Source: Candidatus Omnitrophota bacterium
GTDB lineage: Bacteria; Omnitrophota; Gorgyraeia; Gorgyraeales; Gorgyraeaceae
Direction of reading: 5' to 3'
Length of the DNA stretch: 64,000 bases
NCBI GenBank assembly: GCA_042571405.1
Contig: JBHPHU010000001.1
Coordinates: forward strand, 9,298 to 73,297
Under the pieces are notes generated by a model, which saw nothing but the letters and a program-made list of their open reading frames with translations, was not told where the DNA came from and searched no databases. Both the position numbers and the translations under genes were made by a program. How positions within the stretch are numbered: position 1 is the first letter of the stretch; every line of letters begins with the position of its first letter. This document shows positions 2,493-62,701 of this stretch, piece after piece.

Positions 2493-3793
2493 AAAAATCC
2501 AGAAAGCTGGTTACCTGCCTTAAAACAAATAAAAAACAGGAAATAATAAGGCTTCTCTACGAGATATCAAAAAGAGAAAATATAGAGCCCGATAATATAG
2601 TAAAAAAAATAGACCTTAAAAACTTTGACCGCATAAAAAAAGATCTATTGAAAAGAAGATTTCCTCGAGCGCATCCATCCCCATTTAAGGTCCATCTCCC
2701 TAAAATAAAACTGACTACTGATTCAATACAAAATACTAAAAAGCTGGAATTCTATCCAAAAAAAATATTTATAGAAAAATCCGCAAAGGCCTCTGCCATG
2801 GCGCAGAGATTTAAAAAATCCTTTCCCAAGGCCAAATCTACAGAGATTAAATCCCTGAAGGATTATCTTAAGGAAAATAGACGCCTTACGATCCCTGATT
2901 ATAACAAAAGAAAAGATACCGTCTTTATAACTTATGAAAACTACGATTTCTTTAAAAAATGTCCCTGCACAAAAAAGGCGATCGGATGCGGCTACCATAT
3001 ATTTAACCTGAGCTTTGGCTGCCTGTTCGACTGCACTTACTGCTATCTTCAGGAATATACTAATAGCCCCGGCCTTATATTTCCAGCAAATATTGATAAA
3101 TTCTTCAAAAACTTTTCCTTGTATAAAAAACCTGGCATGCGCATAGGAACAGGCGAGTTCTCAGATTCCCTAATGCTCGACCACATAACAGAATATTCCA
3201 TTCCTATAATAGAATTTTTCAAAAAACATAAAGATGTAACATTCGAATTTAAGACAAAAAGTGTAAATATAGATAATCTCTTGAAAACAAAGCATGCCGG
3301 TAATATAGTAGTTGCCTGGTCTTTAAACCCGCAGAAAATCATTGATGAGAATGAATTTTTTACGCCTTCGCTTACAGAACGCCTAGATGCGGCTAAAAAA
3401 TGCGTCGAGGCAGGCTACAAGGCCTCTTGCCATTTTGATCCAGTAGTGTATTCCAGGGGCTGGGAAAAAGAATACAAAAAAGTAATAGAAATGCTTTTTG
3501 ATACGATAAAACCGAAAGACATAGCATGGATAAGCATAGGCACGCTAAGATTTAATCCAAAGGTAAAACAAACTATTGAGGCGCGCTTCCCTGCTAACAA
3601 GATTCTTAACGAAGAATTGATCCTGGATTTTGACAATAAACTAAGATACCCTTACAGCATACGGCAAGAGGTCTATGATAGTATGCTAAAAACGCTTCAC
3701 AGTCATTCTAAAAAACTTTCGATATATCTCTGCATGGAAAATAGTTCTATGTGGCGGGAATTAAAACTAAGACCGACTAGACTTTTCCGGTAA
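2459..3793 (+). CDS. radical SAM protein, spore-photoproduct-lyase-like family
   Basis: CLFDCTYCYLQ is a CX3CX2C radical-SAM motif. Length and surrounding motifs resemble the SplB-like family. Confidence 0.65.
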   Translation: MRSYKKESARLKKSRKLVTCLKTNKKQEIIRLLYEISKRENIEPDNIVKKIDLKNFDRIKKDLLKRRFPRAHPSPFKVHLPKIKLTTDSIQNTKKLEFYPKKIFIEKSAKASAMAQRFKKSFPKAKSTEIKSLKDYLKENRRLTIPDYNKRKDTVFITYENYDFFKKCPCTKKAIGCGYHIFNLSFGCLFDCTYCYLQEYTNSPGLIFPANIDKFFKNFSLYKKPGMRIGTGEFSDSLMLDHITEYSIPIIEFFKKHKDVTFEFKTKSVNIDNLLKTKHAGNIVVAWSLNPQKIIDENEFFTPSLTERLDAAKKCVEAGYKASCHFDPVVYSRGWEKEYKKVIEMLFDTIKPKDIAWISIGTLRFNPKVKQTIEARFPANKILNEELILDFDNKLRYPYSIRQEVYDSMLKTLHSHSKKLSIYLCMENSSMWRELKLRPTRLFR

Positions 3794-5242
3794 AACTTTT
3801 ATTGCCCGCTCAGGCCTTGCAGGGCATTTGTTTTGGCAGATTCCGCAGCCTATACATAAATCCGGGTCAACACTGGGTTTTAATACTATATCATCTATTA
3901 CCTTGATGGCTTTATTGGGCACAGGGCAATGCTCTTCGCATACGATACATTGCATATTCTTAGACCAGGCAATGCATTTTGAACGGTCTACCTTTGCTAT
4001 GCCAAGTCTTGTTCTTTTTTTCTCTTCCACACTTAACTTTGGTATAGCGCCTGTTGGGCAGACATTTCCACAAAGAGTACAGGTATATTCGCAATAGCCT
4101 ATCTCCGGCACAAGATGCGGAGTCCACATACCCTGCAGGCCTGATTCAAAAATAGCTGGCTGGAGTCCATTGGTTACACAGACTCTCATGCAATTGCCGC
4201 AGCGTATACAACGATCCAAAAACTCTCCTTCTTTCAATGCAGCAGGCGGCCTGATCACCTTTTGCGCTATTAAACGCGTCTTATTTCTAAATCCAAGAGA
4301 CAAAGAAGAGGCAAGCATCAAGAATAAAAACTCACGACGCGATATATTGCCTTTTTCCCCATTCCGACCTCGTAGGTCGACCTCGTAGGTCGACCTACGA
4401 GGTCGGAATGGTAATTGTAAGGTAAATCTGGTTCCTTGTACCGGGCAATCATATATGCAGTCCATACAAAGTATGCATTCGCCCTTTACATAGCTTAAAT
4501 CCTTGTTTATAGCTCCCATCCTGCAGTCTTCTTTGCACTTAAGACAATTCGTACATTTTTCAACTACCCGCCCCAGTGGAGAAAATCTGGCCAGTAAAGA
4601 ATATATTGCGCCCAAAGGACAGATTGCGCGGCACCAAAACCTTTTTGCTATTAAAACTGATGAACATACTAAAACAAAAAATATCAAGATTATACCTGAA
4701 TGAGAAAAATAGTAGGTGTTTATTCCGAGGACTGAAGATTTTAGTAAACGATAAAAATCATACAACGGGGTATAGTAATCTGCCTTTATTATAAAAAATC
4801 TAAGTACTCTATCAAGGCCAGAAGTAACGCCCGGGATAAGATTCAGGGAGACAAACCTTGCTGTAATCACTATTGGATCGAAGATCCAGGCAATCTGGAT
4901 TCCCAAAAAAGAAAATATAGCAATAGCGCCAAGGATATAAAATTTTATAGAGTACGGGATTTTATTCTGCTTTTTTTTCTGGCTTCCACACAGATCTATA
5001 ACAGTACCCAGAGGACAAATCCAACCGCAGAAAAACCTACCAATGCCCAATGTCAATAGCATCATAATAACCGCAAATATTATTCCAGGCAGCATTATGC
5101 GTTCGCTTATGGAGGTAAATATCATTATCAAGGGATTGATTTTAAAGAATACATCTAGATATGTCGCGGACCAAAGGATATATACGAATAATGTGAGAAA
5201 TAAAAATTGGGAGGATCTTCTAAGAATGACTAATTTTTTCAT
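3767..5242 (-). CDS. membrane-anchored polyferredoxin (NapH/MauN-like N-terminus plus several 4Fe-4S clusters)
   Basis: N-terminal TM helices with CGWICPLG and CRAICPLG. C-terminal CxxCxxCxxxCP clusters. An internal palindromic element and a Tat-like RREFLF segment sit mid-protein. Confidence 0.65.
   Translation of the reverse strand: MKKLVILRRSSQFLFLTLFVYILWSATYLDVFFKINPLIMIFTSISERIMLPGIIFAVIMMLLTLGIGRFFCGWICPLGTVIDLCGSQKKKQNKIPYSIKFYILGAIAIFSFLGIQIAWIFDPIVITARFVSLNLIPGVTSGLDRVLRFFIIKADYYTPLYDFYRLLKSSVLGINTYYFSHSGIILIFFVLVCSSVLIAKRFWCRAICPLGAIYSLLARFSPLGRVVEKCTNCLKCKEDCRMGAINKDLSYVKGECILCMDCIYDCPVQGTRFTLQLPFRPRRSTYEVDLRGRNGEKGNISRREFLFLMLASSLSLGFRNKTRLIAQKVIRPPAALKEGEFLDRCIRCGNCMRVCVTNGLQPAIFESGLQGMWTPHLVPEIGYCEYTCTLCGNVCPTGAIPKLSVEEKKRTRLGIAKVDRSKCIAWSKNMQCIVCEEHCPVPNKAIKVIDDIVLKPSVDPDLCIGCGICQNKCPARPERAIKVLPEKSSRS
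4359..4411. repeat. GC-rich palindromic element, family 2 (CCTCGTAGG core), translated in frame
   Basis: ccattccgacctcgtaggtcga / cctcgtagg / tcgacctacgaggtcggaatgg gives 22-bp perfect arms. It encodes PFRPRRSTYEVDLRGRNG in the minus-strand ORF. Confidence 0.85.
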
Positions 5243-7023: not shown

Positions 7024-7518
7024 ATGGAGTTTTTTGAAGTAGTAAAACAAAGAAAAAGCGTAAGGGAATTTTCTGAAAAGATTGTTGAAAAAGAGTTTCT
7101 CGAAAAGATAATAGACGCGGGAAGAGTCGCGGCCACAGCAAGAAATGAGCAGCCGTGGGAATTTATCATAACGTCTGATAAAAATATCCTCAATAAGATC
7201 TGTGACATGTGCCCGAATGGCCCTTTTATTAAGGGCGCGCCGCATTTGATAGCGGTCTTCTCAAAAGATACAAAATATTATCTTGAAGACTGCTCTGCTG
7301 CCACGCAAAACATGCTCCTGGCAATAGAAGCGCTTGGCCTGGGCGGATGCTGGGTCGCGGGAGACAAAAAAGATTATACAGGGGAAATAATAAAAATATT
7401 CAATGTACCCGAAAATCATAAGCTGGTAAGCATGATATCCGTTGGATACCCGAAAACCCCTAAAGAACCAAAAGCAAAAAGAAACACCAAAGAAGTCCTT
7501 CACTGGGAGAAATGGTAA
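7024..7518 (+). CDS. nitroreductase family protein
   Basis: MEFFEVVKQRKSVREF start is typical of the family. AGGAGG lies 7 nt upstream of the ATG at 7024, so the ATG at 7009 is rejected. Confidence 0.8.
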   Translation: MEFFEVVKQRKSVREFSEKIVEKEFLEKIIDAGRVAATARNEQPWEFIITSDKNILNKICDMCPNGPFIKGAPHLIAVFSKDTKYYLEDCSAATQNMLLAIEALGLGGCWVAGDKKDYTGEIIKIFNVPENHKLVSMISVGYPKTPKEPKAKRNTKEVLHWEKW

Positions 7519-7519
7519 C

Positions 7520-9940
7520 ATGACAAATAATCCATTGTGGAAATTCCTGGATGACACAGGCACTTTTGTTGCGAAAAATCCGCACGAGGTAAGCAGGCTC
7601 TATTTTCCGCTTGCGAATGAAAAAGGCTTGCTCTCTTCCATAACCCCTACACTTCACGGAGACATAAAGACAGGCCAGAATACATTCCTCACGCCGCCTG
7701 TTTCCACTGAAGATTTGAGCAATTCAAGATATGGCCGTAACTTCTGGCTTTATATCAAAGGCCATGGCGCATGGTCAGCTGCTTCAGGTGAAGTAGATAA
7801 ATCCCTGATAGAAGCAGGCATGCTGTGGCATAAGGTTATTCGCTCTAATAAAAAAATAGGCCTGAAAGCGGCTTTCACTAATTTTATCCCTGCAGACAAA
7901 CTCGCAGTAGAAATAATGTCTGTAGAGCTCACAAATATATCCTCTAAAAAACTTACTATCACCTCGACAGCTGCCATACCTATATATGCACGCTCAGCAG
8001 ACAGATTACGCGACCACAGGCACGTAAGCGCGCTTTTTAACCGCGTCAGACTGCACAAAAACGGTATTATCGTAAAACCAGCTATGGTATTTGACGAACA
8101 GGGGCATAAAATCAACTCTACATCTTATTTTGTACTTGGCTGTGATGAAAATGGTAATGCTCCTGATAGCTCTATTCCTACTATTTCTCAATTTACAGGC
8201 GAAGGTGGAAATCTTGATAAACCCAAAGCTGTACTAGACCCTGTACGGACGCGGTGTCCGGACAACGCGTCCGTACAGGGAAAAGAAACAATGGGTGCAA
8301 TAGGATTTAAAACCGTTACACTCCTGCCAGGAAGATCTAAGAGATACATCATCGTAATAGGCATAACTCAAGAAGAAAAACCTGAAGCCATATTCAGTAA
8401 ATTCAATTCGCGCAAAAAAATAGATGCCGCGCTTTTAGCAAACAAAGAATTCTGGCTCAAAAATACAAGCTCGATAAGCTCTTCTACGGGAAATAAAGAC
8501 TTTGACAGATGGTTTAGATGGGTAATGCTCCAGCCTATATTGCGTAAGATTTTCGGATGCTCCTTTCTCCCTGATTTTGACTATGGTAAAGGCGGCAGAG
8601 GCTGGCGGGACCTTTGGCAGGATTGTCTTACGCTGCTTCTAATAAATCCAGGCCAGGCCCGCGATATGCTCATTAATAATTTTGGAGGCTGCCGGCCGGA
8701 TGGTTCGAATGCCACTATAATAGGAAAAAAGCAGGGCGAGTTCATTCCTGACAGGAATGATCTAAGGCGTGTGTGGATGGACCATGGAATGTGGCCATTT
8801 ATGACCATTAATCTATATATAAATCAAACAGGAGATACAAATATCCTCTTTAAAAAAGCGCCGTTTTTTGAAAGTAAAAAAATAGCTGATGTTTTAAATC
8901 ATATACTGCGCCAGCATGAAAGACCCTTTACAAAGATCGGTAAACATGGGAATTTCCTGCTCGAAGGCGCGGACTGGAATGACGGACTTGATATGGCATC
9001 TCAACGCGGCGAAAGCGTAGCCTTTACAGCTGCGTATGCGGGTAATTTATATGCGCTTGGAGATTTACTGGAAAAGATAGGGTATAAAAAACAAACTATA
9101 AATGAACTTCGAAGAAAGGCTGATAAACTCGTCAATAACATACGCAAAAACGAATGGATAAAAACAAAATCCGGCTACAGTTTTTTTAATGGTTACTATG
9201 ACAATAAAGGAAAACGCGTTGAGGGAAATAAAAGAATGACCTTAACCGGCCAGGTCTTTCCTATCATGAGTGGTGTTGCAACAGATAAGCAAATCAAAGA
9301 GATATACAGAAGCGCAAAAAAATATCTCTGGGATAAAAAATTAGGAGGATTCAGGCTAAATACTGACTTTGGAGGAGTTTATCCTGATCTCGGCAGGGCA
9401 TTTGGGTTTGCATATGGCGAAAAAGAAAACGGCTCTTTCTTCAGCCACATGAATGTAATGTTTGCCTATGCGCTTTATAAAAGAGGGTTTGCAAAACAGG
9501 GTTTTGAAGTCTTAAATTCTATTTACAAGATGTGCATGAATACAAGCATAAGCAAGATCTATCCAGGCCTTCCTGAATATTTCAATTCTGAGGGGCGAGG
9601 CATGTATCATTATCTTACCGGCTCTGCAAGCTGGTTTGCGCTTACCATGCTTACTCAGGTATTTGGGATCCGGGGGAATATGGGAGACCTTTTAATTGAC
9701 CCGAAACTCACAAAAGAACAATTCGTAAAATCCACAAAGATCTCAATCGATACAAATTTCGCTGGAAGAAAAATAAAGACTACCTACATCAATCCTAGAA
9801 AGCTAGATTATGGAAAGTATAAAATAGGAAAGATTGTCATTAATGAAAAGATTACGACAAAACCACTAATAAAAAGAGAAGAACTTCTAAAAATTACTTC
9901 GAAAAATTTCCCCAACGCAATCAACGTTTATCTAAATTAA
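7520..9940 (+). CDS. GH94/GH36-type glycoside phosphorylase-like protein (cellobiose-phosphorylase superfamily)
   Basis: About 806 aa. GADWNDGLDM catalytic-region motif. The start is moved to the ATG at 7520, just after the nitroreductase stop. Confidence 0.6.
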   Translation: MTNNPLWKFLDDTGTFVAKNPHEVSRLYFPLANEKGLLSSITPTLHGDIKTGQNTFLTPPVSTEDLSNSRYGRNFWLYIKGHGAWSAASGEVDKSLIEAGMLWHKVIRSNKKIGLKAAFTNFIPADKLAVEIMSVELTNISSKKLTITSTAAIPIYARSADRLRDHRHVSALFNRVRLHKNGIIVKPAMVFDEQGHKINSTSYFVLGCDENGNAPDSSIPTISQFTGEGGNLDKPKAVLDPVRTRCPDNASVQGKETMGAIGFKTVTLLPGRSKRYIIVIGITQEEKPEAIFSKFNSRKKIDAALLANKEFWLKNTSSISSSTGNKDFDRWFRWVMLQPILRKIFGCSFLPDFDYGKGGRGWRDLWQDCLTLLLINPGQARDMLINNFGGCRPDGSNATIIGKKQGEFIPDRNDLRRVWMDHGMWPFMTINLYINQTGDTNILFKKAPFFESKKIADVLNHILRQHERPFTKIGKHGNFLLEGADWNDGLDMASQRGESVAFTAAYAGNLYALGDLLEKIGYKKQTINELRRKADKLVNNIRKNEWIKTKSGYSFFNGYYDNKGKRVEGNKRMTLTGQVFPIMSGVATDKQIKEIYRSAKKYLWDKKLGGFRLNTDFGGVYPDLGRAFGFAYGEKENGSFFSHMNVMFAYALYKRGFAKQGFEVLNSIYKMCMNTSISKIYPGLPEYFNSEGRGMYHYLTGSASWFALTMLTQVFGIRGNMGDLLIDPKLTKEQFVKSTKISIDTNFAGRKIKTTYINPRKLDYGKYKIGKIVINEKITTKPLIKREELLKITSKNFPNAINVYLN
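8239..8280. repeat. GC-rich palindromic element, family 1 (GACGCGTTGTC core), translated in frame
   Basis: ccctgtacggacgcggtgtc cg gacaacgcgtccgtacaggg gives 20-bp arms with 1 mismatch. Encodes DPVRTRCPDNASVQGK. Confidence 0.85.
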
Positions 9941-12514: not shown

Positions 12515-13345
12515 TTAAGATAAGATCTTTTCTAGCTGATTAAGATTTATAAACGTACCGTATTTTTTAAGAAGAGTTAATTTTTCTTCTGTCTCTTTTA
12601 TTTTTTCTTTGGACTCATATTCATAGGTATGGCCAAGTACGGAAACCACTATATTGCTTTTATTGTCCACAGATTTACCCTTTAAATCAAGTGCTATTTT
12701 TTCTAACTCTGCCATGTCAGATTTTTCAAAATAGAGGTATTTGCGCTTTGAAACGCCGACAGGTATCTCCCAAACTTTGGAATTTCCAGGTTTACAATGA
12801 TTATCATAGCTCATTCTATACTGCTGTCTGGGCGCGCCTCTCCAATCAGCTATTAAAATATCGCCGTGTTTCAAAAATCTTTCGGGTTCGCATGAAAAAT
12901 CAAAATAAATCTCATTCTGTTCCAGAATTCTTACAATCTTGCTTGAAAATCCCAAAAATCCGCTCCTGTAACACCTGGTGTCCAGACCAGCCTTCCTAAA
13001 TGCCTGGGCCCGCTTGCCAATCACCTTCTCCATCCGAGAGCCATCATGGTAATAATAATCTCTGTAAGAATCATCTTCGTGACAGTGAAGCCCTGTATCT
13101 CCGCCAAATCTTACAAGTTCCTTCCAAAGCTTACAAAATGGCTTCTCAAGAAAAAAATCCCGGCATAGGGGCGAAGTGTGAACAAAATGTATAAATCGGC
13201 CCTGTAGCACACGACTGGCAAGCTCTATCTCACGCTGGACAAGCTCCAACAAAACCTCTTCCTTAGGCAATCGCTCACGATCACTCAATTTAAGATCAAA
13301 ATATTCCCCCCAATCCCCATCTATAGTATATATAAAATACAACAT
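12515..13345 (-). CDS. hypothetical protein (possible deacetylase-like fold)
   Basis: Long clean ORF in operon position behind the KamA-like gene. No motif recognised with confidence. Confidence 0.5.
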   Translation of the reverse strand: MLYFIYTIDGDWGEYFDLKLSDRERLPKEEVLLELVQREIELASRVLQGRFIHFVHTSPLCRDFFLEKPFCKLWKELVRFGGDTGLHCHEDDSYRDYYYHDGSRMEKVIGKRAQAFRKAGLDTRCYRSGFLGFSSKIVRILEQNEIYFDFSCEPERFLKHGDILIADWRGAPRQQYRMSYDNHCKPGNSKVWEIPVGVSKRKYLYFEKSDMAELEKIALDLKGKSVDNKSNIVVSVLGHTYEYESKEKIKETEEKLTLLKKYGTFINLNQLEKILS

Positions 13346-13397
13346 ACCTATATTCTAACTGAATATCCTTCTTTGTTCAAGGTTAATACCTAAAACT

Positions 13398-13601
13398 CTC
13401 GCTCGTCTTTTTGAGCTCACAGGCTGGGGCCTTCGGCACTGGAGAGATTTTGCCGTCCGCTACGGTTTACAACTCGTTTCTCGACCACGCTATCGCCTGG
13501 ATTTCCTGGCCCGAAACTCCCTGTAAATCCTTGCGGACTTTTGCCAAAATCTTCCTAATGTGTCTCAAGCCCCAGCCTGTGAGCTCAAAAAGACGAGCGA
13601 G
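13398..13601. other. 204-nt GC-rich rod-like hairpin with 33-bp perfect terminal inverted repeats (candidate structured RNA or MITE)
   Basis: ctcgctcgtctttttgagctcacaggctggggc at 13398-13430 is the exact reverse complement of 13569-13601. The interior pairs imperfectly (gagattttg / caaaatcttc, gtccgc / gcggac, tttaca / tgtaaa). Confidence 0.7.
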
Positions 13602-13624
13602 CAAATAAAAGGATCTGCTTATAA

Positions 13625-13940
13625 AAGCTAAAAAGGAAGGGTTGAAGAGCGAATTTGAAAATTTAGTCTTTTATGTAGCATTTTGGCGGTTTATTCTGCC
13701 ACATTCTATGAGGCAAAAAGGCCGAAAACTGTTCGACACCCACACCTATGGTGTGGGTGAAGTTTTTTCGGCCCCACCAAAATGCGGAATAAAAGACGAC
13801 CCCGCCCTTTTGTTTAGTGCGTTTCGCATTATGAATGCATCAGCAATTTATAATGCGTAACGCTTACTGTAAAGCTAGACACCTTAACAAAAGGGTGGGG
13901 GAAATTTTCATCTGAGCGAACAGACCTTCCTTTTTAGCTT
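13625..13940 (+). ncRNA. candidate ~316-nt multi-stem structured RNA of unknown family
   Basis: 16-bp perfect closing stem (13625-13640 / 13925-13940). Nested hairpins include ggccgaaaaact..agttttttcggcc around cacccacacc-tat-ggtgtgggtg. Also ccccgcccttttgtt / aacaaaagggtgggg (G.U valid on the + strand only) and gcgtttcgcattat..ataatgcgtaacgc. Confidence 0.45.
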
Positions 13941-14015
13941 AAGACTGTACTGTGACTATTCAAATGCTATAAGCAACAACTATACTTTATTGCACTTATA
14001 AGGTACAATACTTGC

Positions 14016-15941
14016 ATGATTTATGATGCGTTTCAGAAAACGGCTATTGATTATATTAAAGATGGGAATTCGGTTATAGTGTCTGCTCCGACAGGTGCGG
14101 GCAAGACTGTAATTGCTGAATATATCATACTGGACTGCCTTAAAAAAGGTACAAAGGTAATATATACCGCTCCTATAAAGGCCCTGTCTAACCAGAAATT
14201 TCGCGACTTTCAGGAAATATTCCCTGATAAAACAGGCATACTCACGGGTGATGTGTCTATAAATCCCAACGCGAGTGTCCTTATCATGACCACAGAGATA
14301 TTCCGCAACAAAGTGCTTGAAGAAGGGTCTAATGTGGGTGATTATTCCTGGATAATATTTGACGAAGTGCATTATCTTGATGATTACCAGCGCGGGAGCG
14401 TGTGGGAAGAATCTTTGATCTTCCTGCCGAAGCACATGAAAATGCTTGCGCTCTCAGCCACAATACCAAATATAGATGAACTTGCCTTGTGGCTCAAATC
14501 CATACACAAACTGCCTTTAAAGGTAGTAAAAGAAAATACCAGGCCAGTACCGCTTCATTTTTTCTATCAGATACAGGGTCAGATAGTTGATAATATACAT
14601 AAGGCAAGAACCATAGGATACAAAAGAGGCGGGCATAGCTATGGCCATAGAAGATCCCATTCCGGACATAAGCACTTCAAACCAAACAGGTCCACTTCGC
14701 TCATAAAGCATCTTCACGAAAACAATAAACTCCCATGCATATATTTTGCCTTTGGCAGACGCAGATGCGAATCTCTCGCGAATGAAATGACAAACTTTGA
14801 TTTCTTAACGCAGGAAGAAAAAACCAGGGTATTAGAACTTTATAATAAATTATGCGAGAGATTTGAGATCGCAAATGATAAAAGCGCTCAGCTCATGCTT
14901 CCTCTAATTGAAAAAGGTATAGCACACCATCATGCTGGCATGCTCCCTACTTTAAAGGAGGTTATTGAGCGACTTTTTACATCCAGGCTTCTAAAGGTAA
15001 TTTTTACCACAGAGACTTTTGCGCTTGGGATCAATATGCCCGCAAGGACAGTGATCTTTGATGAGCTTAGAAAATTCTATGGGAAATCCTTTGGCACACT
15101 TAAGACACGTGACTTTTTTCAGATGGCTGGCAGGGCTGGCAGGCGCGGTATAGACAAAGAGGGATTTGTGTATAGCCGCGTAAATCCAAATTACACATCA
15201 TTCCCTGAACTCCAAAAAGTAATCTATGGCGCTCCTGAAAAGGTTTTTTCCAGATTCAACGCGTCATACGGCACTATCCTTAACCTGTATGACAAATACG
15301 GTGAAAAGCTGTATGATGTATATCCTCTTTCCTTCCACTGCTTCCAGGCAAAGCAAAAGTTTAGACACAGGGCCACAGAACTACTACGCGCAAAGGTAAA
15401 GATCCTGAAAGAACTCGGCTATATCAGAAAAAATCAAATTTCAGAAAAAGGCGTTTTCGCGTCCAATATCTACGGGTATGAGTTATCACTGGGCGAGCTT
15501 TACGAAAAAGGTGTATTGCAAAATCTAAATGAAATAGAACTTGGAATTCTGTGCGCCGCGCTTATATTTGAACCAAGAAAATCCAGCACCATGCCAAGTA
15601 TCAGCAAAAACGCACGGTCTTTACAAAATGTAACCGACAATCTTACCAGCAATATACAAAAATTAGAAAAAAAGCTAAAGATAAAACCTTTCAGCAAGAC
15701 CTATTATTACCACTTCTCCCCCTGCATTGAGGCGTGGATGAAACAGGAACCATTTGACAGGCTCCTGCGCTACACAGACGCTGACGAAGGTGAGATCATA
15801 AGAAACTTCCGCATGTCTGTCCAGATCCTACGCGAAATCCTAGACACCCCCACTTCCCAGGAGTTCAAAGAAAGAGTAAAAAAGACAATCTACCTAATAA
15901 ATCGAGACATAATCGATGCGGAGAGACAGCTGCGAAGCTAG
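14016..15941 (+). CDS. Ski2-like DEAD/DEAH-box helicase (HelY/Mtr4-like)
   Basis: Motif I APTGAGKT, motif II DEVH, HHAGMLP, QMAGRAGRRG. The C-terminal region is DSHCT-like. Confidence 0.8.
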   Translation: MIYDAFQKTAIDYIKDGNSVIVSAPTGAGKTVIAEYIILDCLKKGTKVIYTAPIKALSNQKFRDFQEIFPDKTGILTGDVSINPNASVLIMTTEIFRNKVLEEGSNVGDYSWIIFDEVHYLDDYQRGSVWEESLIFLPKHMKMLALSATIPNIDELALWLKSIHKLPLKVVKENTRPVPLHFFYQIQGQIVDNIHKARTIGYKRGGHSYGHRRSHSGHKHFKPNRSTSLIKHLHENNKLPCIYFAFGRRRCESLANEMTNFDFLTQEEKTRVLELYNKLCERFEIANDKSAQLMLPLIEKGIAHHHAGMLPTLKEVIERLFTSRLLKVIFTTETFALGINMPARTVIFDELRKFYGKSFGTLKTRDFFQMAGRAGRRGIDKEGFVYSRVNPNYTSFPELQKVIYGAPEKVFSRFNASYGTILNLYDKYGEKLYDVYPLSFHCFQAKQKFRHRATELLRAKVKILKELGYIRKNQISEKGVFASNIYGYELSLGELYEKGVLQNLNEIELGILCAALIFEPRKSSTMPSISKNARSLQNVTDNLTSNIQKLEKKLKIKPFSKTYYYHFSPCIEAWMKQEPFDRLLRYTDADEGEIIRNFRMSVQILREILDTPTSQEFKERVKKTIYLINRDIIDAERQLRS

Positions 15942-30331: not shown

Positions 30332-31210
30332 ATGGGAGAATTGCCAAAAGATAAACTGCTTACAATCAGAAAAATCCTCACTGAAGCGCAAAAAGGCAAA
30401 GATACGAAAGAACGCATTGAAATTTTTGTAAAAGAATTCAGCGATCAATACGATAATTTAGGTCCTGACGCAATAGCATGGATGCGGCATTCTGTATTGG
30501 TGGCGGAAGAAGTTTTTGGCCTGGAGATAGACCACTTCCTCGATAGCAGCCCGCAAGGCGCATGGGATAGCACCACACCCGTATTGACTGCGGCTATGCT
30601 CCATTACATAAAGCCGGAACACACTGTTATATCACTAGGCCCCGGTCCTTTCGCTACTGAGGCATGTGTGGTAAGCAAAGAAAAAGATATGCAGATTATA
30701 ACGCTGGAAATCTGGGAACCCTACATTGAGAGTGGCAAAAAAACCTCTGAAGCAAACAATGCCAATGTAATATTCATAAAATCTGACGTCTATACACCTA
30801 TAGACCCTGTACAGACGCGTTGTCTGCCGAAGGCAGACAACGCGTCTGTACAGGACAAAAACAAACTACCTGAGAATGTAGACTATATTACGTGGAACCC
30901 CCCTTATGTGCCAAGTGCGGATGCTAAAAAATCAGGTTTCTTTGATAGCCCTAAAGTGGTTTCGTATGCATTCGATGGCGGGCCGGAAGGCACAACATTG
31001 ATAGAGCGCGGCCTCAGAGAACTCCCTGAAAACTGGAAGACAAATGCTAAGCTACTCTTTGGCGTAAACACTGTAAAGGTGTCAGAAGACAGTATGCGTC
31101 GTATTGCAGAAAAAAACGGATTCAATCTGCTTGAGATATTTAAACTCTCTGGCAGTCCATGTGAAGTCTTTGTATTTCAGCACACTTCAGCTATTACCGG
31201 AGATAAATGA
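30332..31210 (+). CDS. SAM-dependent methyltransferase (NPPY-type, HemK/PrmC-like)
   Basis: TWNPPYVPS motif. Interrupted in frame by the palindromic element at 30806-30854. Confidence 0.7.
   Translation: MGELPKDKLLTIRKILTEAQKGKDTKERIEIFVKEFSDQYDNLGPDAIAWMRHSVLVAEEVFGLEIDHFLDSSPQGAWDSTTPVLTAAMLHYIKPEHTVISLGPGPFATEACVVSKEKDMQIITLEIWEPYIESGKKTSEANNANVIFIKSDVYTPIDPVQTRCLPKADNASVQDKNKLPENVDYITWNPPYVPSADAKKSGFFDSPKVVSYAFDGGPEGTTLIERGLRELPENWKTNAKLLFGVNTVKVSEDSMRRIAEKNGFNLLEIFKLSGSPCEVFVFQHTSAITGDK
30806..30854. repeat. GC-rich palindromic element, family 1, translated in frame
   Basis: cctgtacagacgcgttgtctgcc gaa ggcagacaacgcgtctgtacagg gives 23-bp perfect arms. Encodes PVQTRCLPKADNASVQ. Confidence 0.9.
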
Positions 31211-33259: not shown

Positions 33260-34733
33260 ACTGCATCCCATCATAATAATAGGCGGCCTTACGCTACTAG
33301 GCGGACTGCTTAGATTTTATCATCTAGGATATAAATCCCTATGGTTCGATGAAGCTGGACTCTACTGGATAGCTCGCGGCAGAGATATTATGGAAATAAT
33401 CTCTTTGAACGCCGCAGGGAACAGCGCTCCGCCCCTATTCCCCCTCCTGGTAAATCTTATCTCAAAGATCGGCGACTCGGAAGCAATATTACGATCTATA
33501 TCTTTCCTGGCCGGAACTGCTGCCATTCCCGCAGTATACTTTTTATGCAAACAGTTCCTTCACAGATACACTGCTTACTTTTGCGCGTTTCTTGTCGCTA
33601 TCTCCTCATCGCAAGTCATGTATTCTCAGGAACTGCGCGAATATTCTGTAGCGTTCCTCCTCGCGACATTGATACTTTTATTCTTCAATAGGTTCCTGCG
33701 CGAACAAAACTACAAAAATCTGCTCTACTTGGCATTGGCCTCTATTATAGGTATTTTTTCTCAATATGGCCTCGCGCTTTTAATCTTGGCTCTTAATCTG
33801 ATCGTAGCCGTAGAGTTATTTTTTATAAACGATAAAAAGAAACTACTTACCGGATGGGCTGCAATTCAATTCCTTGTACTGTGCGCAGCTATTGTGACCT
33901 ACCAGCTTTCACTGAGACATCAGATGGAATCAGGTTTTGGCGCCGGATATCTGGCAAATGCCTATTGGGACGGATCACTGGGCTCTTTGATCAAACTAGC
34001 AACAGTAAACACATATCAGTTTTTCGCATTCGCCTCTTCTGCGTCTGGCCTATTCTGTTTTATATTCTTCATCGGCTTCTTAAACGAGTTGAAAAAACGC
34101 TCTGATCGAACAGCGCTTATGCTGCTTATCTTTCCAATGGTCATTACATTTATCGCTGCGTGCGCCAGGCTATATCCATATCTTGGCAGAAGGCAAGATA
34201 TCTTTCTTGTGCCTATGATTTACGTTTTTGCAGGATTTGGGTTTGAGTTTTTGTCTAAGTTAGACCTTGTCCAGACGCGTTGTCTGCCGAAGGCAGACAA
34301 CGCGTCTGGACAAGGTAAGAAACGAATCATTATCTTGCCTTTAGTGTTAATTCTGGGATTCGTAGGACTTTATCGTACAGGAGAATATCTAAAAGATCCA
34401 GGATTCCAGCATATCAGGCCCGTCATAAAGACTTTGTCAGCTTCGTTTGAACCCAAAGACAGAATGTACATCTATTACGGAGCTAATCCCGCCTTTAGAT
34501 ATTATTATCGAAAGAATATGGATAGAAGGATTTATGGCGTGCGCAGTATAGAGAAACCTGAAAAATATCTCACGCAACTGGATGAAGCTTTATCAAAGCA
34601 AGGCCGTATCTGGATGGTATTTTCGCATTGCCATCCCAATGAACCTGAGTTAATCACGCAGCATACCTCTAAATACCGCAAAGTTAAGCTGGTTTCGACT
34701 AGCCCCGGGGCGTTTCTATATCTTGCGGACTAG
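33249..34733 (+). CDS. GT39/ArnT-like membrane glycosyltransferase
   Basis: Many TM helices and N-terminal YHLGYKSLWFDEA (DE motif loop). Interrupted in frame by the palindrome at 34265-34315. Confidence 0.6.
   Translation: MKVKLHPIIIIGGLTLLGGLLRFYHLGYKSLWFDEAGLYWIARGRDIMEIISLNAAGNSAPPLFPLLVNLISKIGDSEAILRSISFLAGTAAIPAVYFLCKQFLHRYTAYFCAFLVAISSSQVMYSQELREYSVAFLLATLILLFFNRFLREQNYKNLLYLALASIIGIFSQYGLALLILALNLIVAVELFFINDKKKLLTGWAAIQFLVLCAAIVTYQLSLRHQMESGFGAGYLANAYWDGSLGSLIKLATVNTYQFFAFASSASGLFCFIFFIGFLNELKKRSDRTALMLLIFPMVITFIAACARLYPYLGRRQDIFLVPMIYVFAGFGFEFLSKLDLVQTRCLPKADNASGQGKKRIIILPLVLILGFVGLYRTGEYLKDPGFQHIRPVIKTLSASFEPKDRMYIYYGANPAFRYYYRKNMDRRIYGVRSIEKPEKYLTQLDEALSKQGRIWMVFSHCHPNEPELITQHTSKYRKVKLVSTSPGAFLYLAD
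34265..34315. repeat. GC-rich palindromic element, family 1, translated in frame
   Basis: ccttgtccagacgcgttgtctgcc gaa ggcagacaacgcgtctggacaagg gives 24-bp perfect arms. Encodes LVQTRCLPKADNASGQ. Confidence 0.9.
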
Positions 34734-55842: not shown

Positions 55843-56069
55843 TGGCTCCCCCGCGAGGACTCCGGCCTTCGGCCTAGAACCTGTCGCTCATTTGCATTCG
55901 CTCCCCAAAGGGGCTCTCCTTCGACTCTGCTCAGGATGGTTCAAGGGATGGTGAGCCTGTCGAACCATGCCCCTATGGCGTTCCTCGCTTCGCTCGTCAC
56001 TGTTACCCCGAAAGCGTGGGGAAAATTTTTCCCCACACCCCTTTGGTTCTCGTCCTCGCGGGGGAGCCA
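55843..56069. other. 227-nt GC-rich element bracketed by 18-bp perfect inverted copies of the tRNA-Asn 3' end
   Basis: tggctcccccgcgaggac at 55843-55860 is the reverse complement of 56052-56069. 55843-55862 is 20/20 identical to the tRNA 3' end at 59066-59085. The interior shares tcgcttcgctcgt with the tRNA intron. Confidence 0.65.
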
Positions 56070-56117
56070 AATTTGACACAAAAAAAGACACCAGGCAAAA
56101 ATGCCTGGTGTCAAATT

Positions 56118-56147
56118 TGGCTCCCCCAAGACTACGAGTTTCGCAAC
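56118..56147 (-). repeat. tRNA-3'-half-like boundary element, copy i
   Basis: Minus sense: gttgcgaaactcgtagtcttgggggagcca, followed by the terminator gacaccaggca-tttt-tgcctggtgtc plus T7. Confidence 0.65.
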
Positions 56148-56948: not shown

Positions 56949-57380
56949 TTACTTCTTACACTTACCGCAGATACCCTCCAATACAACTTTTTTATTAAGC
57001 ACTGTCAACTTATTCTTAATGTAACTAGGTATTTCGATTTCATCATATGCTTTATTATGAAAATCTATTATTTTATGACACTTTACGCATTGGAAATGGT
57101 GATGATTGTCTATATCCGGGTCAAATCTTTTTGGCTTTCCATAGCCTTCAACTACTTTAATAATTCCTAAATCCGCAAAGGAAAGCACGGTTCTATTGAC
57201 AGTGTCTAATGAAATATGAGGAAACTTTTTTCTGACCCTTTGATAAATAAGGTCTGCGGAAGGATGGTCAGAAGCACCAAGTAACTCTTGATATATAGCA
57301 GTTCTCTGTGGTGTAATCTTTAGATTATTTTCCTGACACTTATTTACAAACAAGTTTAATGACTCGGTTTTCTTATTCAT
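56949..57380 (-). CDS. Fur family transcriptional regulator
   Basis: wHTH N-terminus, HHHFQCVKC...CGKC double CxxC, 143 aa. Confidence 0.85.
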   Translation of the reverse strand: MNKKTESLNLFVNKCQENNLKITPQRTAIYQELLGASDHPSADLIYQRVRKKFPHISLDTVNRTVLSFADLGIIKVVEGYGKPKRFDPDIDNHHHFQCVKCHKIIDFHNKAYDEIEIPSYIKNKLTVLNKKVVLEGICGKCKK

Positions 57381-59065: not shown

Positions 59066-59396
59066 TGGCTCCCCCGCGAGGACTCGAACCTCGGACAACG
59101 TGGTTACACTCTGACTCCGATTACTCGGAGAGTCGGACTATACCTTTGCCATAGCCATTTCTGGCTTTAGGCAGCGAGTGTCTAGTCTCTGCACCTTTCC
59201 GTCTTCGCCAAGCAACTTTCGTGCTTGGCTTCGCCGGACTTGGCTCAGGATTGACCCAATTGCTTGGGCTTTCCCTGAATTTACTCGCTTTTTCACTCCA
59301 GAGTTTCCTCTGGAGGCTGCTAACTTTTGCGAAGTTTTTGTGCACTCGCTTCGCTCGTGCAACAGCCACGCGCTCTACCAACTGAGCTACAGGGGA
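59066..59396 (-). tRNA. tRNA-Asn(GUU) interrupted by a group I intron; CCA encoded
   Basis: Exons 59362-59396 and 59066-59106 join to TCCCCTGTAGCTCAGTTGGTAGAGCGCGTGGCTGTTAACCACGTTGTCCGAGGTTCGAGTCCTCGCGGGGGAGCCA. That is 76 nt with a clean cloverleaf, and closely resembles E. coli tRNA-Asn. Confidence 0.9.
59107..59361 (-). mobile_element. group I intron (IC3-like) in the anticodon loop
   Basis: AAUCCUGAGCCAAG and GGUGCAGAGACUAGAC...CCUAAAGCC...GGCUAUGG cores match the cyanobacterial tRNA-Leu and Azoarcus tRNA-Ile introns. IGS GCAGCC pairs with the exon end GGCUGU (U.G at the splice site). The terminal residue is G. Confidence 0.85.
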
Positions 59397-59426: not shown

Positions 59427-61466
59427 TTATGCTACTTTACAATTAGCCTCGCACATACGTTCCAGGCGGGCCCAGTTTTCATCAATATCTTTTTGGATTT
59501 CTTCCAGGATATGTTTATTTTCTTCCTTAAAGAGATGCTTGAATCTGCCCTGGGGTTTTAAGAATTCCACGACGGGCTTACGTTGTTTTGGCTTGTATGT
59601 AAATTTCCAATTTCCATTTTCTATTTCGATCAAAGGCCAGAAACCTGTTTCAACTGCTAGTTTTGATATCTCGATCGTCTTTTCCTGCGGGAATCTCCAG
59701 CCTCTGTGACACATGGAGATCACATTTAAGAATGCCGGGCCATCTACCTTAAATGCCTTTTCTGCTTTTGTTACAAGGTCATTCCAGCTAGACGCAGAAG
59801 CTTGAGCTACATATGGGATCTTGTGAGCAGCTACTATTGTTGTGAGATCTTTTCTAAATTGCTGTTTACCAGAACTTGCCTTTCCCGCAGGCGCAGTTGT
59901 TGTCGACGCGCCTTTAGGCGTTGCACCGGAACGTTGAATCCCGGTATTGTGAACCACTATGCCATCAGCAATAAAATTATGTTCACCTTCTACCCTTAGA
60001 TCTAATGTCGGCTCTTTACCTACTAACTTTATACTTCCTACCTTTTCCATTTCGAAATATTCGTTACCTATTAAAAAATTCTGATACTTATATTGATTAG
60101 GGTATTTTTTAACATTCCATTTTTCCCTGTCACTGAAGCATACATATCCATACTTCGAATCCTTCAATAACCTCCTGTTTACACATTTTGCTCCTCTTTC
60201 CTTGACCTGCCAATGGATCTTTCCTACTCTTTTACCCATTGTCTGTAAAAATAGTCTTAGGCTCTTGAGTAAATCTTCACTTACTGAAACATAACGCCAA
60301 CTATTTCCGCATTTATACCCGTCTGAAAGCATAAGCCCTTCTACTAGCGCTTCTTTTTGTTCTATTGGCAAAGCAAATGCCCAGCCAGGAATGGTTTTAT
60401 TCTTCGCGCCAATACCAACACCCAAACTCTTTATGAAATTCCCCAAATTTACAGAATTTGCATAAACGTACTCTTCATCAACAGAATTTATCTTGCTTCC
60501 GAAAATCTTCGCGTGAATCTTTACAAGCTCTTTCCTGCCAACTGTATTTTCAGGAAGCGCAAACCCCACTTCTCCTCTTTTTTCTCTTATCCAGCCATCA
60601 CCTATATATAATCCCAGATACTTCATGAGGTCTGGACTAGAGGAACGCGGTATATTGATATCGTTTAACTTATTTACCTTATAATCGCCTTTCTTAACCT
60701 TCCTAAAATCAAATATAGCTGACTTAGAGTATCCATTTAACCCTTTTAAAGTTACTACCTCATCTCCTATCTTTACATCTTCCAGTTTCTTCCACGCAAG
60801 CCTGTTGGTCTTGCCTGTTCCGCCTCTCTTTAAAACTAAAAACGGGTGATTCGAAGTAGCTTTTATAGAATGGTGCAAAGTATTAAGCTCGTAAACATCT
60901 TTTACCCCATTATCAAAGACGCCTGAGCATTCTTTTAAAACCAATTGATGCGTCTTCTGGTCAAAGGCATATACTTTATCGCCTATTTTTATTTCAGTAA
61001 TTTTTTTAAGTCCCTTTTCCGTCATTATCATAGATGAAAGGCTCAAGCAGTTCATATAAGCTTCGTTATTATAGCAGACATATACAAAATTATGGCCGCG
61101 TTCTAGCGCGCCTGAAAGCGATTGAAGTCCTATGTCAAAGGTCCCTCCATCGCCGCCGAATGCAACGAACTTGATTTCCTTTTTGATCTTTCCTTTTTTC
61201 TTTAATGCTCGATAAGCTGTTTCAACGCCGCTTATCGTCGCCGCCACATTTTCAAATGCATTATGGATAAATGGCGTTTTCCATGCAGTATACGGGTAAA
61301 TAGTAGTTGCTACTTCGAGACATCCTGTAGACGCTCCAACTACTACAGGATCTTTTGTCCCCAGTAAGACCTGACGCACTACAATAGACGCGCCGCATCC
61401 TGCACAAAGCCTGTGTCCGCCTGATAAACGTTCCGGTTGTTTCGAAAGTTCTTTTATGTTGGCCAT
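59427..61466 (-). CDS. porB: pyruvate/2-oxoacid:ferredoxin oxidoreductase beta (TPP-binding) subunit, containing an intein
   Basis: CAGCG N-terminus, GDG-x25-NN TPP motif, and extein junction NEAYMN | TGIQRSG. Start at MANIKEL (61466) behind a GAGAGGG RBS. Confidence 0.9.
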   Translation of the reverse strand: MANIKELSKQPERLSGGHRLCAGCGASIVVRQVLLGTKDPVVVGASTGCLEVATTIYPYTAWKTPFIHNAFENVAATISGVETAYRALKKKGKIKKEIKFVAFGGDGGTFDIGLQSLSGALERGHNFVYVCYNNEAYMNCLSLSSMIMTEKGLKKITEIKIGDKVYAFDQKTHQLVLKECSGVFDNGVKDVYELNTLHHSIKATSNHPFLVLKRGGTGKTNRLAWKKLEDVKIGDEVVTLKGLNGYSKSAIFDFRKVKKGDYKVNKLNDINIPRSSSPDLMKYLGLYIGDGWIREKRGEVGFALPENTVGRKELVKIHAKIFGSKINSVDEEYVYANSVNLGNFIKSLGVGIGAKNKTIPGWAFALPIEQKEALVEGLMLSDGYKCGNSWRYVSVSEDLLKSLRLFLQTMGKRVGKIHWQVKERGAKCVNRRLLKDSKYGYVCFSDREKWNVKKYPNQYKYQNFLIGNEYFEMEKVGSIKLVGKEPTLDLRVEGEHNFIADGIVVHNTGIQRSGATPKGASTTTAPAGKASSGKQQFRKDLTTIVAAHKIPYVAQASASSWNDLVTKAEKAFKVDGPAFLNVISMCHRGWRFPQEKTIEISKLAVETGFWPLIEIENGNWKFTYKPKQRKPVVEFLKPQGRFKHLFKEENKHILEEIQKDIDENWARLERMCEANCKVA
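59946..61049 (-). mobile_element. 368-aa intein with LAGLIDADG homing-endonuclease domain
   Basis: Begins CLSLSSMIMTEKG (block A), with TSNHPF (block B). LGLYIGDGWI and VEGLMLSDGY are the LAGLIDADG motifs. Ends NFIADGIVVHN followed by Thr+1. Confidence 0.9.
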
Positions 61467-61479
61467 GTTTAACCCTCTC

Positions 61480-61514
61480 AACCTCGTAGGTTGCCTACGG
61501 CAACCTACGAGGTT
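61480..61514. repeat. GC-rich palindromic element, family 2, in the porA-porB intergenic spacer
   Basis: aacctcgtaggttgc ctacg gcaacctacgaggtt gives 15-bp perfect arms and shares ACCTCGTAGGT with the copy at 4359-4411. Confidence 0.85.
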
Positions 61515-61519
61515 AAATA

Positions 61520-62701
61520 TCACTCCCTCGAGCCTAAATAGTTTAAGGGTGTTTTTACCTTACCTGCTTTTAATGTATCCTGTAACTCTACGTAAACCTT
61601 ACTTATATCTGACGGAAAGATATCTCTTCCGCCAAGACCATATATGTAATTTGTGATCAGCGGTTTTATACCTGAATCATATAATGCTGCCTTTATCTCT
61701 GTATAAAGCGGCCCGCCTTCTGCTGAAAATGATTCGCTCCTGTCAAGGATAGCGACTGATTTTACATTCTTTAAGGCGTTTACAATTCTCTCCTTTGGAA
61801 ACGGCCTGAAAATCCTTGGCCTTAAAAGTCCCGCCTTTATGCCTTTTTGTCTTAATTCATCTATGGTAAACTTTACTGTTCCAGCTGTTGAAGACATCGC
61901 AACTATTGCAATTTCAGCGTCTTCTAATTTATATGTTTCAATAAAATCGTATTTTTTGCCAAATGTCTTTTCAAATTCATTTAATACTTCAGGAATCGCG
62001 CTCAAGGCATCCCTCATTGCTTCTCCTTGCTGGCGTTTGTGCTCAAAATAATAGTCCTGTAGGTCGAGCGGCCCGTATGTTGCAGGATTATCAACATCCA
62101 GCAAAGGATTTTCGATCTTATATTCACCGACAAAATCCTTAACTTTTTTATCATCAAGCATATCTACGCCCTCTACACCATGAGACGTTATAAAACCATC
62201 CTGGCATACCATTACAGGGAGAAGTATTTTTTTATGCTCTGCGATCCTTACCGCAAGTACTGTATTTTCATATACCTCCTGGGCATTTTCGCAGTAGATC
62301 TGTATCCAGCCTGAATCGCGTGCGCCCATTGTATCTGAATGGTCACAATGTATATTTATCGGGCCCGAAAGTGCGCGATTTACAACAGGCATTACTATAG
62401 GTAGCCTGGTTGAAGCAGCAATATATACGATCTCCCACATGAGCGCAAGACCATTCGCGGATGTCGCTGTCATAGTACGCGCCCCTGCTGCTGCCGCGCC
62501 TACGCACGCGCTCATTGCGCTATGCTCTGACTCAACATGTATCACCTCTGTTGACACCTGGCCATTCGCAACATAATTCGCAAAGCTCATAACAATCGCT
62601 GTCTGCGGCGTAATAGGATATGCAGCCACTACATCCGGCTCTATCTGCTTCATTGCATACGCAACTGCCTGATCGCCTGTTAATGGAATCTTCTTGCTCA
62701 T
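61520..62701 (-). CDS. porA: pyruvate/2-oxoacid:ferredoxin oxidoreductase alpha subunit
   Basis: 393 aa. Typical N-terminal GDQAVAYAMKQ..VVAAYPITPQT. Confidence 0.9.
   Translation of the reverse strand: MSKKIPLTGDQAVAYAMKQIEPDVVAAYPITPQTAIVMSFANYVANGQVSTEVIHVESEHSAMSACVGAAAAGARTMTATSANGLALMWEIVYIAASTRLPIVMPVVNRALSGPINIHCDHSDTMGARDSGWIQIYCENAQEVYENTVLAVRIAEHKKILLPVMVCQDGFITSHGVEGVDMLDDKKVKDFVGEYKIENPLLDVDNPATYGPLDLQDYYFEHKRQQGEAMRDALSAIPEVLNEFEKTFGKKYDFIETYKLEDAEIAIVAMSSTAGTVKFTIDELRQKGIKAGLLRPRIFRPFPKERIVNALKNVKSVAILDRSESFSAEGGPLYTEIKAALYDSGIKPLITNYIYGLGGRDIFPSDISKVYVELQDTLKAGKVKTPLNYLGSRE

Follow-up and report, generated by a model that had tools for sequence, protein, structure and literature searches.

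The MITEs Correia/NEMIS of Neisseria, RUP of Streptococcus pneumoniae and Nezha of cyanobacteria are present in tens to hundreds of copies per genome, are flanked by short perfect target duplications (e.g. TA), and in several cases have a known parent IS. The enterobacterial palindromes ERIC/IRU and YPAL measure ~127-170 nt and have variants in which whole blocks are inserted or deleted at set internal sites, with ERICs usually found inside transcribed regions. Hairpin repeats of the REP/REPIN type are mobilised by RAYT and are thought to act as folded single-stranded DNA; the REPs themselves are 20-40 nt long, carry a conserved GTAG and depend on a RAYT gene. Elements derived from IS200/IS605 have subterminal hairpins without inverted-repeat ends, produce no duplication, use a fixed 4-5-nt left target and have TnpA in the genome.

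Here we describe a block of two adjacent palindromes, element A and element B, in a 64-kb stretch of DNA (the whole of it hereafter called the window) whose best protein relatives are named Candidatus Omnitrophota. Like Correia/NEMIS, RUP and Nezha, the A-B block is short, non-coding, intergenic near promoters, polymorphic for presence or absence between close strains, and without a transposase of its own, and its element A is bounded by terminal inverted repeats. It differs from them in its apparently low copy number, in showing no parent IS, in a duplication that is imperfect and ~12 nt long, and in that A travels with a second element. No sequence similarity of the block to these MITEs was found in Rfam or in plasmid and phage collections, the latter returning no match at all. 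With ERIC/IRU and YPAL, A shares the form of an imperfect intergenic palindrome, conservation above that of neutral DNA and an unknown mobility mechanism, and the block variants of ERIC parallel the exchangeable tips of A and B. The host, however, belongs to another phylum, there is no sequence similarity, and the block lies between divergent promoters rather than in a transcribed region. The maintained complementarity of the arms in A and B recalls REP/REPIN, although A is far longer than a REP (204 nt) and no Y1_Tnp domain was found in the window ORFs scanned, which argues against placing the block with that group. The ends of A are true inverted repeats, arguing against membership among IS200/IS605-derived elements, and the window shows no TnpA. 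We regard the block as a new family within a familiar kind of element: it works like hairpin-forming MITEs and the ERIC/YPAL palindromes, with no sequence relation found to either. Our preferred reading, to which we give a probability of roughly 60%, is that A is one module of an A-B composite belonging to undescribed, low-copy, modular non-autonomous mobile elements of the MITE/foldback type in one Omnitrophota lineage.

Architecture of the A-B block

The block lies inside a 670-nt region between two divergent genes, one encoding a 276-aa protein (12515-13345, minus strand) with no Pfam or PHROG family, the other a DEAD/DSHCT (Ski2-like) helicase (14016-15941, plus strand), which was used to find orthologous loci. 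The divergent intergenic position given by an earlier sequence-only reading of this DNA was thereby borne out. The predicted promoter of the 276-aa gene (13352-13380, minus strand) is 17 nt from the left end of A and is retained at the related locus L012, where 8042-8084 is 93% identical to window 13347-13389. A predicted promoter of the helicase gene (13959-13986, plus strand), a consensus match only, is located just right of the block. Since the block sits between two divergent promoters, neither neighbour would transcribe it. The closest MAG (GCA_964637815), which carries the depositors' label 'uncultured Planctomycetia', encodes a helicase 93% identical to that of the window; neither flanking protein was on record in an exact look-up in protein collections.

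Element A (13398-13601) is a 204-nt rod-like palindrome and the feature that the sequence-only reading had reported. Its left arm (13398-13430, plus strand) is a 33-nt perfect repeat of which the right arm (13569-13601, minus strand) is the exact reverse complement, as had been stated. A search of the 64-kb window at ≤3 mismatches found these two matches and no further match to either arm, against 0 expected by chance; with mismatches, the arms reach 42 nt at 90% complementarity. Folding of the 204 nt likewise agreed with the earlier description of a rod, giving a single rod of -114.3 kcal/mol (z -12.6) on the plus strand and -124.9 kcal/mol (z -14.3) on the minus strand, with 0/200 shuffles folding as well. 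The 10 x 13 internal loop that had been proposed after the stem was not recovered: beyond the 33-bp stem, the helix of the minimum-energy fold is first broken by a 4 x 4 loop, past which pairing continues. Two further features had been read correctly, the raised GC content (53.5% in 13400-13599 versus 39-44% in the flanks) and the spurious ORFs on both strands (65 aa on plus, 45 aa on minus). These ORFs are not conserved, the apical module being replaced with a change in length, and a comparison of the 65-aa ORF with a protein collection, made to catch mis-called copies, gave no homologue.

Alignment of the copies of A described below showed that their common core starts with GTCTTTTTGAGCTCACAGGCTGGGG (13405) and ends with its complement (13594). 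The outer 8 nt of the left arm (CTCGCTCG) occur in other copies only at this gene-proximal end (CTAGCTTG), and the outer 8 nt of the right arm (CGAGCGAG) are palindromic in the window copy only. The arms, perfect over 33 nt in the window, extend over ~25 nt with 1-2 mismatches in L016 and L020. Alignment and folds together delimit an apical module (13472-13521): in the L016-type copy these ~45-50 nt are swapped for an unrelated ~62-nt hairpin, so that the tip of A is exchangeable. The stems of A hardly vary and are therefore uninformative on covariation, none of which was seen among the aligned copies.

Missed in the sequence-only reading was a second, larger nested palindrome, element B (13625-13946), which starts 23 nt right of A and is branched (fold z -16.3). 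From outside inwards it consists of a 16-bp perfect outer stem (13625-13640/13925-13940), GAGCGAA loops (13647-13653 and 13914-13920) and an inner stem (13656-13664/13902-13910), which encloses two sub-hairpins. H1 (13666-13797) is conserved in all three full copies of B; it begins GTCTTTTA and ends TAAAAGAC, like A, and its apex holds a terminator-like stem (13737-13759) followed by a T-run, conserved with compensatory changes. Sub-hairpin C (13800-13900) is specific to the window, its place in the L012 and L016 copies being taken by a different ~55-nt hairpin of the CCAGCCCTTTCGTAGAAAGGGCTGG type. Hairpin tips are thus exchangeable modules in A and B. The tail of the inserted block (13947-13972, TGTGACTATTCAAATG...), read directly, may weakly resemble the matching end of the L016 fur-site block (TGTGAGTATTACAAAAG); homology with the relative resumes at ~13976-13981, right of this tail. 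The composite insert of A and B, about 570 nt (window ~13390-13975), is hairpin-rich, lacks coding capacity and has no terminal inverted repeats of its own.

Among the three copies of B, pair-keeping double changes were counted at 19 of the 97 predicted pairs, compared with 7.2 +/- 2.0 in shuffles and 1-6 in slid controls, while 4 pairs were altered on one side only. Eight of the 19 lie in the outer stem, which exists in two versions, AAGCTAAAAGGAAGG and AACCCAAAATGAGG. The better-folding strand in all copies is minus for A and plus for B; because the favoured strand differs between the two, strand asymmetry is uninformative as an RNA test and gives no consistent signal of a transcribed strand.

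Short motifs recur in the block. At the frequency of the hexamer across the window, GAGCGA or its complement should turn up 0.32 times in the 586-nt block; it is present four times (13399, 13595, 13647 and 13914), and every occurrence marks a helix junction or the end of an element. The pair of GAGCGAA copies in B runs in direct rather than inverted orientation, one on either side of an internal loop. Both A (13405-13412 / 13587-13594) and H1 (13666-13673 / 13790-13797) start with GTCTTTTW and finish with WAAAAGAC. As a candidate recognition motif these termini were set aside and are left as an observation only: they are not enriched elsewhere, and in the L012 H1 a compensatory change gives GCCTTTTA...TAAAAGGC, which shows conservation of the motif to be less than strict.

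Copies, empty sites and other palindromes

The sequence-only reading had suggested a search for further copies, and this was productive. An exact 23-mer of the A arm occurred at one place among 185,579 species genomes, a contig start in the fragmented MAG GCA_964637815 beside fur (L001), and longer contigs of the fur locus were found by looking up that Fur protein. Copies of A were recovered at L020 503-699 (92% identity), at L016 7700-7910 and, truncated at contig ends, in L001, L018 and L025. Copies of B were recovered at L012 19918-20192 and L016 7424-7693, with a minimal version at L012 9898-9958.

In L016 a radical-SAM gene ending at 7409 is followed by rc(B) (7424-7693), a 9 nt spacer, rc(A) (7700-7910), the fur promoter and fur at 8001. 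In alignment, window 13398-13801 corresponds collinearly, as a single match, to L016 7910-7519, and 13899-13964 to L016 7465-7403. The closest relative therefore carries the A-B pair, with internal order and orientation unchanged, at a locus unrelated to that of the window, and the layout at both loci is rc(B)-rc(A)-promoter-gene, the gene being that of the 276-aa protein in the window and fur in L016.

A and B are each also found singly, and across the two lineages A occurs in three different contexts and B in four. In L019 and L020, A lacks B and stands between the fur flank and a different gene; it is 92% identical to the window copy and has the same apical module. In these two independent assemblies (L019 1-362, L020 1-505) a different upstream gene, seen as a 146-aa fragment, replaces B and the radical-SAM gene; the junction reflects a genuine rearrangement of the allele or, alternatively, a chimeric assembly formed through a second copy of A. 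The solo B at L012 19918-20192 is 90% identical to window B and sits exactly where synteny between L012 and the window ends. The 61-nt minimal B (L012 9898-9958) occupies the orthologous place upstream of the helicase and shares its outer stem with the B of the fur site. The 64-kb window holds one copy of A and one of B, and copy number looks low. Contigs of several assemblies break inside A or B.

Other candidate copies were rejected. A metagenome scan with a 20-mer core returned nine loci (L002-L010) and a viral contig (L011) that share only 20-23 nt without hairpin context and were treated as chance; matches of the L002 type belong to a different, GGGCTCA-rich repeat. Three further conserved sub-patterns of A and B gave no matches in viral contigs. 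Possible remnants of A at L012 9691-9900, two weak and non-collinear matches (27/500 shuffles), are not claimed.

Comparison with relatives showed the block to be an insertion relative to compact empty sites. In L026-L035, whose Fur is 96% identical and whose flanks are ~95% identical to L016, the fur site carries no insert: the radical-SAM gene runs up to a stop codon that overlaps the -35 box of fur, leaving 62 nt between the two genes. The orthologous intergenic region, which the sequence-only reading had proposed to inspect for an empty site, is indeed empty in two relatives, where the genes flanking the window site are 93 nt (L041) and 35 nt (L015) apart. The ~525-nt insert at the fur site has ACCTGCCAGGGC at its left border and AACTACCAGTGT at its right border, with a single ACCTACCAGGGC in the empty site. 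This direct repeat of 12 nt is imperfect, its right copy matching the empty site at 9/12 positions; by our own calculation, with boundaries fixed by the empty-site alignment, such a match has a chance of ~1e-3, and a free-alignment shuffle test on a longer junction stretch containing the repeat was marginal (53/1000). At the window site the candidate repeat 13388-13397 versus 13972-13981 matches at 7/10 positions and is not significant. No duplication flanks A alone, in line with the earlier remark that no target-site duplication was recognised.

Between the 276-aa gene and the helicase gene, related loci carry different inserts, which makes this intergenic position a hot spot. L041 and L015 have nothing between the two genes. 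L014 has a TrkA_C gene and a 157-nt hairpin with 28-nt arms (4943-5099), L044 a 161-nt hairpin alone with 26-nt perfect arms (1289-1449), and L012 (8085-9965) an ORF6N anti-repressor-like gene, a 311-aa gene of no family and then the minimal B. The L014 and L044 hairpins lie just upstream of the helicase promoter and are unrelated to each other and to A or B; a candidate homology of A or B with the L014 hairpin was not significant (35 and 147 of 300 shuffles). The presence of different hairpins at the same site indicates that long GC-rich hairpin inserts are recurrent in this clade and belong to several unrelated families.

The window contains other palindromes and structured features. Short perfect palindromes with the core GGCAGACAACGCGTCTG(T/G)ACAGG, REP-like and separate from A, occur at 8239-8280, 30806-30854 and 34264-34316. 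The copy at 8239-8280 is in frame inside a GH94 gene (7442-9940) and resembles the in-frame Rickettsia palindromic elements; the L012 orthologue lacks it, so that the palindrome adds ~10 residues (DPVRTRCPDN). The other two copies are also inside long ORFs. A second type, a perfect palindrome of 23-25 bp (GACCTCGTAGGTC...) containing CGTAG, is found at 4359-4411 inside the ORF of a 4Fe-4S protein (3767-5242), and a similar CGTAG palindrome in L012 (16502-16547) lies between genes. A 90-nt hairpin with 31-nt arms (56049-56138, 87% complementary) is downstream of a PTPS gene, with a Fur-family paralogue nearby (56949-57380). A group I intron (RF00028, 81 bits; 59114-59341, minus strand), the sole Rfam match in the window, adjoins a TPP-enzyme gene (59427-61523, minus strand) with an intein (Intein_splicing, Hint). 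No tRNA gene was found in the window.

Probable mobility and alternative explanations

The copies of A and B are much more alike than the neutral sites of their host genomes. Five flanking orthologues compared between the window and L012 have 86.5% DNA identity and 63.9% identity at four-fold sites (n=773), the latter figure far below the 92% of A (window versus L020) and the 90% of B (window versus L012). Such identity indicates that the elements were recently exchanged or moved, or are constrained. The block is found at different places in close relatives and is absent from the same sites in others, making a small non-autonomous mobile element the most likely explanation. The sequence-only reading had offered a MITE as one of two possibilities, and this stands in essence: the lack of coding capacity, the terminal inverted repeats on A, a size under the ~600 bp of MITEs for both A and the block, a second locus, presence/absence polymorphism with intact empty sites and conservation above neutral. 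What does not fit is the apparently low copy number, the association of A with B, a direct repeat that flanks the whole block only, and the absence from the window of a cognate autonomous IS with matching ends. As had been noted for transposases, the window ORFs scanned showed no transposase, integrase or recombinase domain. On balance we describe the block as MITE-like rather than as an established MITE.

In a mobile-element model, a gene elsewhere in the genome would supply the enzyme that moves the block in trans. This enzyme would recognise the hairpins as DNA, in the form of folded single strands or of paired inverted repeats. Selection for the ability to transpose might preserve the complementarity of the arms, or template switching within a strand might do so, and landing just upstream of -35 boxes would be tolerated because genes are not disrupted. 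A plausible history places A-B upstream of the helicase already in the common ancestor of the window and GCA_964637815 lineages. Within the GCA_964637815 lineage, once this had diverged from the P0122 strain, a copy may have reached the fur site, and the helicase-site copy may then have decayed to the minimal B with the same outer stem.

The alternative that A-B encodes a structured non-coding RNA or works in cis as an RNA element, with helices under RNA-folding selection and the whole relocated or horizontally exchanged between loci, draws on the very strong folding z-scores, the conservation far above neutral, the arrangement of rc(B) and rc(A) before a promoter and gene at both loci, and the terminator-like stem and T-run in the H1 apex; a functional RNA would likewise account for the strong covariation in B (19 compensatory pairs in the three copies). 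We nevertheless consider it unlikely. The 6S-like or other regulatory RNA raised by the sequence-only reading found no backing in Rfam, where the 6S models had no match at gathering threshold or E<=10, and where nothing relevant was found at gathering threshold across the window or at E<=10 in 13300-14050. The likeness of A to 6S RNA, a rod with internal loops, is superficial: 6S is a conserved single-copy gene, whereas A is absent from the orthologous region in L041, L015, L014 and L044, and the predicted fold of A is without a 6S-type central bubble. The element is missing at both sites in close relatives, the stems of A show no covariation, and no promoter-like site is conserved between copies, the sole internal one being in the window-specific module C. 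In addition, the excess of double changes over wobble intermediates in B (19 to 4) is unusual for RNA-level selection. Together with the folding of both strands, the better one differing between A and B, and the position between divergent promoters, this excess fits single-stranded DNA folding or arm-to-arm template switching better than selection on RNA; such quasi-palindrome correction is a known mutational mechanism.

Different cargo lies beside a hairpin at the same intergenic site in L012 and L014, with the hairpin alone in L044, and the solo B in L012 is placed exactly at a synteny break. These observations would agree with the hairpins being att-like or attC-like recombination sites, placed at integration hot spots on the borders of gene cassettes or islets that can be exchanged; the copy in the window would be a remnant that has no cassette, and the site-specific recombinase would be encoded elsewhere. 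The imperfect repeat at the fur site is also more like hybrid att sites than a fresh target duplication; read more widely, as a repeat of ~25 nt, it has about 9 differences/50 nt by our own count, versus ~6% in neighbouring intergenic DNA. We regard this explanation as quite improbable, because no integrase or recombinase was found in the window or the fetched loci, the hairpins are upstream rather than downstream of the cargo genes, and hairpins of different lineages are not detectably related. Integron attC sites are imperfect palindromes of 57-141 nt, situated in cassette arrays and/or near intI, and have R''/R' core sites (RYYYAAC/GTTRRRY), which were not seen by eye at the element ends; these read GTCTTTTT...AAAAAGAC, and the elements measure 204-322 nt. 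Very improbable is the view of A as an inert palindrome generated locally, e.g. by inverted duplication during replication, and devoid of mobility or function. The window does hold only one copy, and template switching can perfect palindromes, a process that the window-only 8-nt palindromic extension fits. Against it stand the same sequence at an unrelated locus in another lineage (92-95% identity), the clean empty sites and again the conservation far above neutral.

A broader proposal, which we hold to be doubtful, is that A-B and the unrelated long hairpins found at this site in sister lineages form a distinct class of modular 'hairpin-in-hairpin' Omnitrophota elements. These would spread as folded single-stranded DNA or as mobile structured RNA via an unrecognised enzyme; they would land immediately before promoters and within the loops of one another, and would mark hot spots of small gene-cassette exchange.

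Significance for Omnitrophota

Omnitrophota are uncultivated and their mobile DNA is essentially undescribed; full-text searches of the literature met no description of such elements in this phylum, and 'Omnitrophica' combined with 'miniature inverted-repeat' returned no paper. The interest of the finding, which we judge to be moderate, comes chiefly from the phylum of the host, the clean pairing of occupied with empty sites, and an architecture that is both composite and modular. Palindromes of this kind break metagenome assemblies, as seen from the contigs that end inside A or B, and generate spurious ORF calls. With a clean pair of occupied and empty sites, a second occupied locus and arms that co-evolve by double substitutions, the locus gives a practical starting point from which the enzyme responsible could be sought when complete genomes become available. 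More speculatively, an insert placed immediately before the fur-feoAB promoter might change how the host regulates iron.
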